13,222 nt of DNA from a virus (IMGVR_UViG_3300033066_001253:1-13222); one strand, 5' to 3'; shown: positions 79-4,182, counted from the stretch's first letter. Program-made: numbers and translations. The notes: generated by a model from the letters alone, not told the origin.

Positions 79-130
79 TAACGTTTGGCGTATAAGAGCC
101 GTTTTTTCAATGGCTTCTTATGCGCTGTTA
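79..130 (-). repeat. attC-like site 1
   Basis: TAAC 79-82, GTTA 127-130; arms gcgtataagagcc / ggcttcttatgcgc with one bulged base. The minus strand reads acctaac-agcgc-ataagaagcc...ggctcttat-acgccaaac-gttatgt, resembling a classical attC top strand. Confidence 0.85.
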
Positions 131-185
131 GGTGTCTGGTTTTAAAAATAAAAAAGCGGGGGGATTAATAACTAAAAAAATAATT

Positions 186-458
186 ATGAAAGAGAAAATA
201 CATTACGAAGCAAGGTTGAACAGAAATATTCGGAGAGAATATTATACTTGGACTACCTACAAAAAGGGAACATTAATTGCAAAGTTTGGACAAAAAGAAT
301 TTGAAAAACTGACATTGAAAAACATTGATAATTTTTTTTCTCCCCAAATAACATTAGGACACGGAGCAGCCGAATATTTTGATGTTGAAAAGGATATTGA
401 TTTTGTAAAAGTAATTACATACACAAAAACAAAAGAGAATTTTGTAAAATTGAAATAA
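186..458 (+). CDS. Cassette A hypothetical protein (about 90 aa)
   Basis: ORF track 132..458. ATG at 186 after an A-rich stretch is preferred because 132 lies in the site boundary. No family recognised. Confidence 0.7.
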   Translation: MKEKIHYEARLNRNIRREYYTWTTYKKGTLIAKFGQKEFEKLTLKNIDNFFSPQITLGHGAAEYFDVEKDIDFVKVITYTKTKENFVKLK

Positions 459-497
459 TAAACCGTGCGGTGGGTTTTTATTTTTAAAACTTGCACC

Positions 498-726
498 TAA
501 CGGTTGAGTATAAATTTAGTAAAAACAACACATATGAAAAAAATATTAGAAAAAATTTTGTGTAGGTGGTTTGGAATACATAAAGTTAATGAGGATGAAT
601 GGACAGATAGTTTTGGATGGGGTGAGAAATATCTAGGACAAACTAATTGGTGTAGTAGATGTGGTGAAATGATTAAAAGGGATGAACAAAATTTTTAGTT
701 GTTTTTATTGAATTTATACTTTGTTA
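498..726 (-). repeat. attC-like site 2 with a whole gene in its loop
   Basis: TAAC 498-501, GTTA 723-726; 24-nt arms 506-529 (gagtataaatttagtaaaaacaac) and 698-721 (gttgtttttattgaatttatactt) pair fully with three G-T pairs. Confidence 0.82.
534..698 (+). CDS. Small C-x5-H...CxxC protein, DUF1660-like prophage protein (54 aa)
   Basis: LCRWFGIHK...WCSRCGE pattern recognised by eye. ATG 534 preferred over the track start at 504, which lies in the hairpin arm. Confidence 0.65.
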   Translation: MKKILEKILCRWFGIHKVNEDEWTDSFGWGEKYLGQTNWCSRCGEMIKRDEQNF

Positions 727-747
727 TGTTCTCGTTTTAATGGAACA

Positions 748-874
748 TAACGTTTTTAAGCCTTGTTTAGTGCGGGCTTAAAAGCACTAATTTAATTTTG
801 AAACACAAATATTATTATGAACAAAAAAGTATCAAACGAAGCCGAAAATCCCGCATTGAACAAGGGTGCTGTTA
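748..874 (-). repeat. attC-like site 3 (loop holds the start codon of the cassette C gene)
   Basis: TAAC 748-751, GTTA 871-874; arms ccttgtttagtgcggg / cccgcattgaacaagg (16 bp, two G-T pairs). Confidence 0.85.
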
Positions 875-1026
875 TAAGAAGTAAATTTGTTTTTGTGCGT
901 TACCGAAATTGGTCAGGCGATGAAAAAGTACAGGCAATAGCAGCTAAAAGCGAAACAGCAGCAAGAACTTGGTTAAAGCAAAGTGGTTTTGAAGAAATAG
1001 AGGTAAAACAAATTTATTTCTTATAA
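817..1026 (+). CDS. Cassette C hypothetical protein (69 aa)
   Basis: ORF track. The N-terminal ENPALNKGAV is encoded by the attC arm, and the stop TAA is the TAA of the terminal TAAC. Confidence 0.75.
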   Translation: MNKKVSNEAENPALNKGAVIRSKFVFVRYRNWSGDEKVQAIAAKSETAARTWLKQSGFEEIEVKQIYFL

Positions 1027-1096
1027 CGGTTTGCAGCTAACAGAAGGCGGCTTTTTAGCAAACACAGTTGATGCCGCTTTTTGTTAGGTGCTGTTA
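1024..1096 (-). repeat. attC-like site 4
   Basis: TAAC 1024-1027, GTTA 1093-1096; arms gcagctaacagaaggcggc / gccgctttttgttaggtgc, with an inner ctaac/gttag pair resembling L boxes. Confidence 0.85.
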
Positions 1097-1161
1097 TGTT
1101 GGTGCGTAGGCTTGTGTGTGAGGCAGTTTTATTTTATTAATTTTTAAAAAAGCGAAGGAAA

Positions 1162-1557
1162 ATGTATTGTCAAAATGATATAGAATTAAAACAAAAGTGT
1201 AATTATCAATGTGAGCATTGTAAAAATTATTATAAACCACTAAAAAGTATGATACAAAAATTTAGAAAAAAGCCTGTTAAAGTTGAAGCTATACAATGGA
1301 ACGGAAACAGCAACAAAAAAGAAATTGAATTTTTTGTTGGTAAGAAATTGAAAACAGAATTAGAAAGCGAAACTGCTTATGTTGCTGGAAAAGGCGCACC
1401 GATATTTAGCTTACTTATTGAAACAAAAGAAGGTGTTATGAAAGCCTTTCCAAATGATTGGATAATTAAGGAAGCATTTCCAACTGGAGATAGAGATTTT
1501 TATCCATGTAAAAATGAAATATTTATTAAAACTTACGAATCATGCCAAGAGAAATAA
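1162..1557 (+). CDS. Cassette D gene 1: conserved phage protein of unknown function (RKKP-x-x-EA-x-QW...DWII...FYPCK-x-x-IF-x-x-TYE family)
   Basis: Motifs FRKKPVKVEAIQW, ETKEGVMKAFPNDWIIK and DFYPCKNEIFIKTYE, plus a Cys-rich N-terminal extension. Confidence 0.75.
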   Translation: MYCQNDIELKQKCNYQCEHCKNYYKPLKSMIQKFRKKPVKVEAIQWNGNSNKKEIEFFVGKKLKTELESETAYVAGKGAPIFSLLIETKEGVMKAFPNDWIIKEAFPTGDRDFYPCKNEIFIKTYESCQEK

Positions 1558-1742
1558 GATTATATACAGTTGAAGAATTATGTAATGAAAATAAAAAAAT
1601 CATAATTAAATCTCAAGATGGAATAGAAATTGGAATTGAACCTGGCGAAAATGGAACTATTATAAATTTTTATTTTGGCAATGAAGTTATAAAAACAGAT
1701 TTTAATTATTTGGTTAAACCAGTTAAGAGCGTAGGCTTTTAA
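1542..1742 (+). CDS. Cassette D gene 2, hypothetical (66 aa)
   Basis: ORF track; overlaps the previous stop region; its stop lies in the right terminal repeat. Confidence 0.6.
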   Translation: MPREIRLYTVEELCNENKKIIIKSQDGIEIGIEPGENGTIINFYFGNEVIKTDFNYLVKPVKSVGF

Positions 1743-1766
1743 AAATTAATAAAATAAAATTGAACA

Positions 1767-2782: not shown

Positions 2783-3058
2783 ATGAAAACACACCGATTA
2801 AAAACAGTTCAGCCATACTTTGAAAGATGCTGGCAACAATCAAAAACATTTGAGGTTAGAAAAAATGACAGAGATTTCCAAAAAGGTGATACTGTTTATT
2901 TGCAGGAATACGATGCAGAAACTAACACTTACAGCGGAAAAGAAATACGAGGAACAATACTTTATGTTTTGCACGAATATCCTGCAATTGAAAAGGGTTA
3001 TGTGGTGTTTTCATTTTGCGTTGACCAATATATTGAAAAAGCTAATTCGGAGCAGTAA
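2783..3058 (+). CDS. Cassette G: DUF3850 / ASCH (PUA-like) domain protein
   Basis: H-x-LK-x-x-x-PYF...KTFEVRKNDRDFQKGD-x-V-x-LQEYD...YSG...I-x-YVL...GYVVFS signature. Confidence 0.85.
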   Translation: MKTHRLKTVQPYFERCWQQSKTFEVRKNDRDFQKGDTVYLQEYDAETNTYSGKEIRGTILYVLHEYPAIEKGYVVFSFCVDQYIEKANSEQ

Positions 3059-3072
3059 GGTAGCATTGGTTA

Positions 3073-3205
3073 TAACGATACTCAGATATATTTAGGTTTT
3101 CTTTTTAATATATAATAAAAACAATTTAAACGATGAAAAAGATGAAAAACGAGAACATAAAAAGTTTCGGAGAGTTCAATGAAAACTTGAATATATCTGA
3201 TGTTA
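3073..3205 (-). repeat. attC-like site 8 (loop holds the start of the cassette H gene)
   Basis: TAAC 3073-3076, GTTA 3202-3205; 20-nt arms 3082-3101 and 3181-3200 pair fully with two G-T pairs. Confidence 0.85.
3111..3116 (+). promoter_or_regulatory. Possible -10 element (TATAAT) inside the attC8 loop
   Basis: Exact TATAAT 16 bp before ATG 3133, but there is no convincing -35 and the region is very AT-rich. Confidence 0.25.
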
Positions 3206-3396
3206 GAAATAGTTTAAAAAAGAATGACATAGTAAATTATGATGGTGTTAGATACATTATCCTTGATATAATAGATGATGAATTATGGATAAGACCATTA
3301 AGAAATCCATACGGTGGTTCCTATCATTCATCACCAATGAGTTATCCAAACTTAAAGGTAAAAATAGATAACCCTAAATTAGAATTCTTTTCTTAA
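3133..3396 (+). CDS. Cassette H hypothetical protein (87 aa)
   Basis: ORF track; NENLNISDV is encoded by the attC8 right arm. Confidence 0.75.
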   Translation: MKKMKNENIKSFGEFNENLNISDVRNSLKKNDIVNYDGVRYIILDIIDDELWIRPLRNPYGGSYHSSPMSYPNLKVKIDNPKLEFFS

Positions 3397-3404
3397 ATTA
3401 TTTC

Positions 3405-3530
3405 TAACGTTTTGCAGCTTTGCTTAGTGCGGGATTGATAAAGATAAACTTACTTTAAAAACGAAAATTATGAATACAGAAAAAACAGACTTAGAAAACG
3501 AGAACCCCGCATTGAGCAAAGGTGATGTTA
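3405..3530 (-). repeat. attC-like site 9 (relative of site 3; loop holds a start codon)
   Basis: TAAC 3405-3408, GTTA 3527-3530; arms ctttgcttagtgcggg / cccgcattgagcaaag. Confidence 0.85.
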
Positions 3531-3688
3531 GTGGCTGTTATTATTGGCATTGTAGGTTTACTTTCCCAAATGATAAACTTGAATGTTACTTAACAGAATG
3601 GAATAATTGCAGAACATTTAAACAGCTAAGAAAATGGTGGAGAAAAGAAAAGCCGATGTTAAAATTAGTATCGGCTGTTCGCCAATAA
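3470..3688 (+). CDS. Cassette I hypothetical protein (72 aa)
   Basis: ORF track; ENPALSKGDV is encoded by the attC9 right arm. Confidence 0.72.
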   Translation: MNTEKTDLENENPALSKGDVSGCYYWHCRFTFPNDKLECYLTEWNNCRTFKQLRKWWRKEKPMLKLVSAVRQ

Positions 3689-3698
3689 TAATTGCCAC

Positions 3699-3785
3699 TA
3701 ACGGTTGAGTATTGGCGAAGTGCCACCAGTACAAACTTTCAAATTAGGCACAAACTATCTGTGGCATTTTGCCAATACTGTGTTA
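3699..3785 (-). repeat. attC-like site 10 (relative of site 6)
   Basis: TAAC 3699-3702, GTTA 3782-3785; arms agtattggcgaagtgccac / gtggcattttgccaatact (19 bp, two G-T pairs). Confidence 0.85.
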
Positions 3786-3831
3786 TAGGTAGTTTAATTT
3801 TTTTGAAGCGTTGGCAACTAAATAATTTGAA

Positions 3832-4158
3832 ATGGAAGATTTAACAACACCACAAATAGGGACTACTTGCCCTGCATTGACAAATGAAAATTATGAGTAT
3901 CACCTTTCAGGCGACTGTAAACCTTTTTGCATTTGTTCATTAAACGACCAACCCTGCAAAGGACGAAGAATAGAAGACCCGAAAGACCAAAGCAGTCAGT
4001 TTTTTAGCAGAGGAAAATGTATGATAAGCCAAAGCGGATTAAAAAGCTGTCCAGTTTACGGGGCTTCAAAAGAAACCTTTGCAAAAATCATAAAAGACAA
4101 AATGCAAAAAGAATTAGACGAAAAGTTGAAAGGTGTGGGTGCGGAGGCAAAAAATTAA
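3832..4158 (+). CDS. Cassette J Cys-rich hypothetical protein (108 aa), attI-proximal
   Basis: ORF track; seven Cys including C-x3-C-x-C, possibly metal binding. Confidence 0.75.
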   Translation: MEDLTTPQIGTTCPALTNENYEYHLSGDCKPFCICSLNDQPCKGRRIEDPKDQSSQFFSRGKCMISQSGLKSCPVYGASKETFAKIIKDKMQKELDEKLKGVGAEAKN

Positions 4159-4163
4159 ATTAC

Positions 4164-4182
4164 CTATAACGTGGGGTTAGAC
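4164..4182 (-). other. attI-like simple recombination site
   Basis: Minus strand GTCTAAC-CCCAC-GTTATAG: two inverted 7-bp boxes with a 5-bp spacer and no hairpin arms, at the array end next to the recombinase. Confidence 0.75.

Follow-up and report, generated by a model that had tools for sequence, protein, structure and literature searches.

We have identified long terminal inverted repeats at the ends of gene cassettes in a viral genome, and suggest that they form one arm of a folded recombination site. The analysed DNA (IMGVR_UViG_3300033066_001253:1-13222; 13,222 nt, hereafter the window) makes up the first 13.2 kb of a viral contig of 148 kb. At 1-4170 it carries an array of small open reading frames (ORFs) on the + strand with attC-like hairpins between them, and a tyrosine recombinase gene lies downstream of the array. 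Ten cassette bodies (A to J, spanning 127-4170) alternate with the hairpins, each running from a GTTA to a TAAC box, and in nine of the ten the two ends are complementary in register, the exception being E. Our preferred reading, to which we assign a probability of roughly 0.6, is that the repeat is the R arm of a folded site mimicking double-stranded DNA for a Xer-type recombinase without the I2 helix of integron integrases, that a G.T pair in the arm marks strand and state, and that extension of the arm beyond this pair is a stability clamp.

To display the repeats, the left arm, read from the G of GTTA, was aligned with the reverse complement of the right arm, which ends at the C of TAAC (Table 1). 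The original prediction had listed such repeats for A, B, C, D, F, G, H, I and J, and all of them are present at the positions it gave. They are also real rather than products of chance, as judged by comparison with shuffled sequence, a check that had been set beforehand. When the 8-bp box was kept and the rest of each arm was shuffled 1000 times, the observed score was never reached for A, C, I or J, and was reached by 1 shuffle for H, 12 for G and 29 for F; B alone, whose body is just 29 nt, was not significant. Our unbiased pairing figures come from the window together with L004, a contig with a 99% identical recombinase. There, 13 of 15 bodies have at least 12 in-register Watson-Crick pairs, eight of them with 20-25, and D becomes the fourteenth body with arms once a 23-nt bulge is removed. 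Non-cognate arm pairs from the same arrays reach a mean of 8.5 Watson-Crick pairs, and 8 of the 15 cognate pairs lie above all 210 non-cognate ones. Additionally, the repeats persist within coding sequence, as had been claimed: both arms of C fall within ORF 817-1026, the left arm of H within ORF 3133-3396 and that of I within ORF 3470-3688. The right arm of J codes for the final residues of ORF 3832-4158.

The same in-register repeats were found in ~50 further cassettes from five related phage arrays. In an anatomy set of 51 cassettes with at least 12 pairs from six arrays, we recognize a universal arm of ~15 bp, in which GTTA-N5-A-G-T-N3 pairs with N3-A-T-T-N5-TAAC. The GTTA/TAAC pairing at positions 1-4 is invariant, positions 5-9 and 12-14 accommodate all four Watson-Crick pair types, and position 11 has G in the left arm opposite T in the right. 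A G-T pair had been predicted to occur usually at position 11; the pair is indeed there, and 'usually' proved too weak, as it is invariant in 38/38 unbulged arms and in 13/13 arms with a 1-nt bulge (51/51). The single bulged base of these 13 arms lies near left-arm positions 8-11, and the 23-nt insertion in D, after position 8, falls in the same stretch. Read on the + strand, the non-Watson-Crick pairs comprise 62 G.T/T.G versus 0 A.C/C.A in R arms and 84 versus 13 in the inner stems of the hairpins, contrasts that are somewhat inflated because the scoring favours wobbles.

Covariation is pronounced. After removal of duplicates, 394 of 414 variable cells are paired in this score-chosen set, against 173 +/- 10 when partners are permuted. 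Cassettes with homologous cargo have arms altered on both sides (L004 1496 versus L015 7078; L012 5105 versus L015 6765; L012 8194 versus L039 1898), and homologues of cargo D1 in cassettes of L025, L039 and L041 have quite different arms that are again complementary. In other phages, many homologues of D1 and J are ordinary armless genes, with homology ending at the ORF, in line with the expectation that homologues outside cassettes lack complementary ends.

Arm length is bimodal, with 14-16 bp in 37 of 61 cassettes and 17-33 bp, mostly 21-29, in the other 24. The overall range of the optional extension is 21-34 bp, D reaching 34 bp after bulge removal. Length follows the free energy of the first 15 bp, predicted with DNA folding parameters. 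All 13 arms in which this value is above -11 kcal/mol (AT-rich and weak) extend to 21-29 bp, and 21 of the 23 arms at -13 kcal/mol or below stay at 14-16 bp. At the base composition here, the chance of six extra complementary bases is ~4e-4. Neither arm length nor stability correlates with body length. The joint change of both arms in homologues and this stability rule argue for continuing selection on the arms, and thus against the suggestion that the repeats are, as the whole story, a relic of how cassettes are made. Arms seem to be needed as far as their own G.T pair, since the G.T element is supplied even by the cap in minimal forms; beyond it, the helix seems merely to have to close.

Each of 43 attC sites has an asymmetric bubble of 4-6 versus 0-2 nt followed by an inner stem of 11-24 bp, and the 857 scored inner-stem positions include 734 Watson-Crick pairs, 84 wobbles and 13 bulges. 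A G.T wobble lies in the 5' arm, 19-21 nt after the C of TAAC, at 36 of the 43 sites, mostly as A-G-T opposite A-T-T, and its G is on the strand running away from the central bubble, the same as in the R arm. The seven sites without it comprise six 40-nt minimal sites and the 82-nt attC of L004 (3616-3699). The 40-nt sites have TCGTTTTAATG as their loop. This can be parsed into a bulged T, a C-G pair, a G.T pair and a hexaloop, so that the loop provides the wobble element beyond the 12 bp of the inner stem. Two empty bodies, at 723-751 of the window and at 9119-9147 of L010, are closed by an identical cap, there placed directly behind a 9-bp arm.

Circular folds of the + strand give a dumbbell in every unit with cognate arms, with the R arm stacked on the inner stem across the 4-6 versus 0-2 nt bubble, which agrees with the predicted single central duplex with two loops. 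Over 3190-4200, the predicted fold of the + strand has -132.5 kcal/mol, 18 kcal/mol better than the -114.3 of the - strand. In a linear single-strand fold, each GTTA arm pairs across its own body and not across the attC; the hybrid box across the attC has a median of 6 pairs versus 14 for cognate arms. These folds suggest that double-stranded arrays would hold poor substrates, and that a good site would form when the whole cassette is single-stranded or excised. Formation on single-stranded cassettes would fit the single-strand pathway and the cassette-length effects known in integrons (PMC5371416).

The boxes at the base of the arms are also where arrays differ. Blocks common to L004 and the window break at TAAC boxes. 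L004 has an extra hairpin and body exactly after the TAAC ending F, and lacks 3411-4154 (cassettes I and J), which in the window adjoin an attI-like site. In L019, the 40-nt hairpin 2689-2728 still precedes body G, and the flanks to the left of its TAAC and to the right of G's TAAC differ. Gain, loss and reshuffling between the window and L004, L019, L021 and Logan contigs all break at TAAC, and these boxes also bound contigs from public runs of three or more studies, at 2685-3077 and 3405-3703. Thus, comparison of L004, L019 and the public contigs indicates that the mobile unit is an attC hairpin plus its downstream body, with crossover within TAAC(G), and that new cassettes enter beside the recombinase gene. 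We rejected a cassette boundary at GTT (a body plus its downstream attC), as attC 2689-2728 stays with body G in three contexts and the attC to the right of G changes. Read on the minus strand, the arrangement is the classical integron geometry with the cargo inverted.

From these features, we propose that the terminal inverted repeats are the outer arm, or R arm, of a folded single-stranded site in a phage-borne integron-like system. In a single-stranded + strand, the ends of a unit would pair into a duplex of at least 15 bp, and this duplex would stack on the attC inner stem over the small bubble. The folded unit would then resemble a double-stranded Xer/dif-type site with two full binding arms, which the recombinase could bind as such. 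The G.T pair at position 11 and the A-G-T/A-T-T wobble of the inner stem would exist only in the folded + strand, and thus the G.T probably tells the recombinase strand and state. It may take the role that extrahelical bases and the I2 helix have for integron integrases, I2 being absent from the 271-amino-acid enzyme here. Pairs past position 11 would act as a clamp only, keeping the arm closed despite the 100-900 nt of the body loop. A GC-rich arm could make do with four such pairs, an AT-rich arm would be lengthened to 21-34 bp, and an empty arm would be closed directly by the hexaloop cap. Five features are new, none having been found in the literature searched: the fixed G.T pair, the minimum of 15 bp, the dependence of arm extension on stability, the mirroring of the wobble in the inner stem and our reading of the cap.

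Several points weigh against this proposal. Cassette E persists without cognate arms. Most cassettes outside the window were chosen by complementarity score, which makes their pairing statistics partly circular. The arm requires the whole cassette to be single-stranded, and a single-strand-binding protein of the phage would oppose folding. The link between absence of I2 and a long arm is drawn from one lineage, and a limited look at 8001-16000 of L047, a bacterial contig (GCA_006365055.1) encoding a more distant relative of the recombinase, revealed no long cassette-flanking repeats. Finally, G.T wobbles on the + strand fit RNA structure equally well, as every cargo gene is on that strand.

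This last point raises the possibility that the stems act in RNA, with cassette ends pairing in a polycistronic + strand transcript (through G.U pairs) for processing, exonuclease protection or translation tuning, and with the recombination boxes merely at the stem base. The common orientation of the cargo ORFs, the occurrence of every non-Watson-Crick arm pair as G.T on the + strand, and the fact that conserved wobble-rich stems are typical of RNA would suit such a role. Yet in ORFs C, H and I the left arm is located 55-70 nt into the reading frame, where a processing stem would cut or block the message, and the structure is complete even in empty bodies and minimal attC sites, which have no gene for it to control. 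Moreover, the recombination boxes themselves are where arrays break upon cassette gain and loss, and neither promoter-like sites (23 versus 19 +/- 4 expected) nor terminator-like sites (2 versus 2.1) are enriched in a scan that had Bacteroidota-type promoters outside its range. We consider a role in RNA unlikely. We give a similarly low chance to the repeats being a by-product of cassette origin with little present function, whereby an empty palindromic cassette (B is an example) would capture a gene in its loop and pass its complementary arms on to it. Empty bodies with the standard cap do occur in two arrays, arm sequences are common to unrelated cargo (E and L015 4078-4383; the GTTATAAGTAGT family), and cargo homologues of J and D1 elsewhere are armless. 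A relic should decay, yet the variable cells remain overwhelmingly paired, homologues are doubly changed, arm length follows a stability threshold, and none of 51 arms has replaced the G.T at position 11 by a Watson-Crick pair. An exact-pattern search of viral contigs found no empty D cassette. Such capture could explain how arms arise alongside the R-arm reading, and does not account for their maintenance.

Far less probable than either is that the repeats are those of small non-autonomous transposons, akin to miniature inverted-repeat transposable elements, moved by another enzyme, with the hairpins between them unrelated. Bodies bracketed by inverted repeats with conserved GTTA/TAAC tips bear a superficial likeness to such elements. 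The breakpoints contradict this on present sequence comparison, as the moving unit takes in the upstream hairpin and ends at the next TAAC rather than running from repeat to repeat. Furthermore, no target-site duplications were seen in the sequence, arm interiors are unique to each cassette and not family-wide, and a dedicated tyrosine recombinase gene and an attI-like site adjoin the array.

T4-type phages reportedly carry promoter-early stem-loop (PeSL) cassettes, which Arbiol et al. in 2010 are said to have described, ascribing their exchange to homologous recombination between promoter and terminator modules. In PeSL cassettes, the genes are separated by a strong early promoter of sigma-70 type together with a terminator stem-loop. 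Like them, the array here lies in a plastic part of a T4-like phage genome, and consists of small accessory genes that are separated by stem-loops and shuffled among close relatives. It differs in its breakpoints at 4-5-nt boxes, its adjacent dedicated recombinase and its covarying cassette ends. On Acinetobacter plasmids, pdif modules are bounded by XerCD sites, which are 28-bp double-stranded sites of 11-6-11 layout in alternating orientation. No double-stranded 11-6-11 site was found at the junctions read, and only the attI-like site at 4167-4190 is a simple double-stranded site.

The array also resembles integrons. An array of small cassettes stands beside a tyrosine recombinase gene and a simple attI-like site, imperfect hairpins with a conserved AAC/GTT crossover triplet lie between cassettes, the ends of a single cassette together make the R box, folding is good on one strand only, and the newest cassettes are next to attI (here I and J, absent from L004). 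An integron attC is a folded bottom strand with an R box, an unpaired central spacer and an L box (PMC11641012, PMC8876359), and R box, unpaired spacer, L box and crossover triplet are all recognizable here, with TAAC/GTTA invariant. The canonical core site is 7 bp (PMC8876359), in contrast to an R arm of 15-34 bp here, although the 7-bp figure (RYYYAAC/GTTRRRY), taken from that source, is not the same measurement. Canonical integrons have extrahelical bases and the IntI insert (PMC11641012, PMC4792948), whereas the arm here has an invariant G.T wobble and almost no extrahelical bases. The L-box extrahelical bases that set strand choice are absent, the conserved irregularity being the wobble, and the 271-amino-acid recombinase lacks the IntI-specific additional domain (I2 helix). 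In integrons, promoterless cargo is read from Pc, away from intI; the phage cargo genes point towards the recombinase, lie on the folding strand, often start in the attC loop and can occupy either dumbbell loop.

A further parallel is the CTX phage. Escudero et al. 2016 (PMC4792948) contrasted IntI/attC with XerCD/CTX, in which Xer enzymes without I2 act on a phage site that mimics double-stranded DNA, and our preferred reading matches this contrast. In CTX-phi, a folded single-stranded phage attP is recombined by host XerCD (as discussed in PMC4792948). Judging from the folds, the array here would share with it an I2-less Xer-type enzyme and a folded single strand with an imperfect centre that mimics a two-arm double-stranded site and does so without extrahelical bases. 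Unlike CTX-phi, the phage here encodes its own recombinase (4211-5026), its sites delimit many exchangeable cassettes rather than mediating one whole-genome integration, and a fixed G.T pair stands in each arm. Qi et al. 2023 (PMC9892861) reported clusters of attC sites without an integron integrase (CALINs) from phages, one of them infecting Polaribacter. Both they and the array described here have attC-like sites between small genes, the CALINs in virulent phages of aquatic bacteria (PMC9892861). The CALINs were found with canonical attC models and have no associated integrase, and no Xer-type recombinase, long R arm or G.T rule was described for them (PMC9892861).

If correct, our proposal yields a simple, testable site rule: an arm of 15 bp with G.T at position 11, and a clamp whose length is set by stability. 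The proposal would show how a plain Xer-like enzyme recognizes a folded single strand without a domain thought essential in integrons, and would bear on the evolution of integron recombination. More tentatively, and with less than even odds, we suggest that an I2-less Xer-type recombinase can act only on the two-armed dumbbell with its G.T marks, and that this represents a second, simpler form of single-strand cassette recombination, near a pre-integron state and carried by phages, with a mismatch confined to the folded strand taking the place of extrahelical bases and the I2 helix. A viral origin of integrons has been raised as speculation (Escudero et al. 2016, PMC4792948). The search signature GTTA-N6-G ... 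T-N6-TAAC, in register, could find virome cassettes missed by canonical attC models. The arm rule would also explain a DNA-structure constraint on the N- and C-termini of many tiny phage proteins. As only the structure of the arms is fixed, they might serve as a compact, sequence-flexible recombination tool.

The recombinase itself supports the assignment to the Xer group. It matches the integron-integrase profile TIGR02249 at 151 bits (cut-off 265) in two pieces, skipping profile positions 181-256, its match to VchIntIA (2A3V) ends at residue 181, where the IntI insert starts, and its best solved relative, archaeal XerA, aligns over the full length. Thus, with the split profile match and XerA as closest solved relative, we call it Xer-like. 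Homologues with 58-83% identity occur in related T4-like phage contigs, directly 3' of similar small-ORF arrays, and the recombinases of the arrays compared here are 58-99% identical. All cargo ORFs in the window point towards the recombinase gene and three begin within the attC loop; the recombinase gene is followed by T4-like genes (GroEL, clamp-loader subunits). An Rfam scan of the window matched no family, megablast of the window against GenBank phages gave no match, and tblastn of the recombinase against plasmids returned Xer-like matches only, the best of which, on a Chryseobacterium plasmid, has no small-ORF array.

Table 1. Coordinates of cassette bodies, attC hairpins and recombination genes and sites in the window.
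Feature	Coordinates	Strand	Details
Body A	127..501	+	left arm 127-154, right arm 475-501: 8 bp (127-134/494-501), 4x3-nt irregularity holding the G.T, 16 bp (16/16, 139-154/475-490)
Empty body B	723..751	+	9-bp arm (9/9, 723-731/743-751) closed by cap TCGTTTTAATG
Body C	871..1027	+	arms 871-893/1005-1027, 22/23, G.T at position 11
Body D, two ORFs	1093..1770	+	left arm 1093-1100 + 1124-1149, broken by 23-nt bulge 1101-1123; right arm 1737-1770; without bulge 33/34 paired, G.T at position 11; with insertion left in, 8 bp plus 25/26 (1124-1149/1737-1762)
Body E, exception	1857..2262	+	arms not cognate; only GTTA/TAAC pair
Body F	2381..2688	+	arms 2381-2395/2674-2688, 13/15; both non-Watson-Crick pairs G.T (positions 10, 11)
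Body G, cargo DUF3850	2729..3076	+	arms 2729-2742/3063-3076, 13/14, G.T at position 11
Body H	3202..3408	+	arms 3202-3225/3384-3408, 23 pairs, one bulge, G.T at position 11
Body I	3527..3702	+	arms 3527-3548/3681-3702, 20/22, G.T at position 11
Body J	3782..4170	+	arms 3782-3803/4149-4170, 21/22, G.T at position 11
attC inner hairpin, upstream of body A	83..126	+	4-6 unpaired nt after TAAC, L stem, 0-2 nt before GTTA
attC inner hairpin, unit B	502..722	+	23-bp L stem; whole 54-amino-acid ORF 534-698 in loop
attC inner hairpin, unit C	752..870	+	118-nt class; ORF C start in loop
attC inner hairpin, unit D	1028..1092	+	
attC inner hairpin, unit E	1771..1856	+	
attC inner hairpin, unit F	2263..2380	+	118-nt class
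Minimal 40-nt attC, unit G	2689..2728	+	12-bp L stem plus cap TCGTTTTAATG; with body G in three contexts
attC inner hairpin, unit H	3077..3201	+	ORF H start in loop
attC inner hairpin, unit I	3409..3526	+	ORF I start in loop
attC inner hairpin, unit J	3703..3781	+	
attI-like double-stranded simple site (TAAC, 5 nt, GTTAGAC)	4167..4190	+	TAAC-GTGGG-GTTAGAC, just upstream of recombinase gene; adjoins cassettes I and J, which L004 lacks
Xer-like tyrosine recombinase, 271 amino acids	4211..5026	+	without IntI-specific insert, by profile and structure-relative comparison

Across the arrays, attC sites fall into length classes of ~40, 80 and 118 nt. In the 118-nt class (752-870, 3077-3201, 3409-3526, also 2263-2380), the loop and 3' arm hold a start codon and ~18-23 N-terminal codons, and thus ORFs C, H and I begin inside a recombination site. 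ORFs C and I have an attC-encoded ENPAL-x-KG in common, and the D1 homologue in L025 has apparently had its own N-terminus swapped for an attC-encoded leader. In unit B, the ORF in the attC loop adjoins an empty body, and cargo can be housed in either dumbbell loop. Cargo may also lie within the attC in L010 and L012, where large 'attC gaps' measure 400-800 nt.

Two cassettes show irregular arms. The right arm of E is identical to that of an unrelated cassette, L015 4078-4383, and its left arm resembles the left arm of another unrelated cassette, L039 1898-2182 (20/23 nt); E may be a frozen or chimeric cassette. The right arm of A reads CACATAAC in L004 (417-424) and CACCTAAC in the window (494-501). 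The L004 form creates a G.A mismatch at arm position 5, next to a different downstream hairpin, and may be a point change or the trace of an exchange.

In Logan contigs from wastewater and river metagenomes, units G and I have a summed depth of 100-206 versus ~1-7 for the bodies next to them within those runs. Individual cassettes thus seem to occur far more widely than this phage's array, although contig depth is a poor measure. No circle junction, such as 3701 joined to 3408, was seen among the public contigs, in which rare circular junctions would not show. In several of these contigs, the left extension of A or D runs into the right extension of the same cassette (153/477, 178/465, 1150/1729, 1152/1734), across unknown letters and with short sides (<=30 nt). 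Such joints might represent repeat artefacts, or cassettes that have these arms but are empty or carry other cargo. They were not used as evidence, and neither was one joint that goes back from 3213 to 2374, which likewise has a side of <=30 nt and unknown letters between.

More distant relatives of the recombinase, of 347 amino acids, have an N-terminal extension instead of the IntI insert. One of these, in L047 (8001-16000), is ~42% identical, has the N-terminal extension and no IntI insert, and is followed by restriction and ParDE toxin-antitoxin genes. Another relative, P0073, lies beside ribosomal genes with no array. GC skew is positive across the window (1-13222); if this reflected replication rather than coding bias, the folding + strand might be the lagging-strand template, the orientation favouring folding in integrons, although this is a weak inference. 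The last ~110 bases of contig G000 (147.8 kb) consist of ~11 tandem copies of AAACAATTAA, a 10-nt unit. At its opposite end, this contig stops within the cassette array, which is therefore probably longer than seen.

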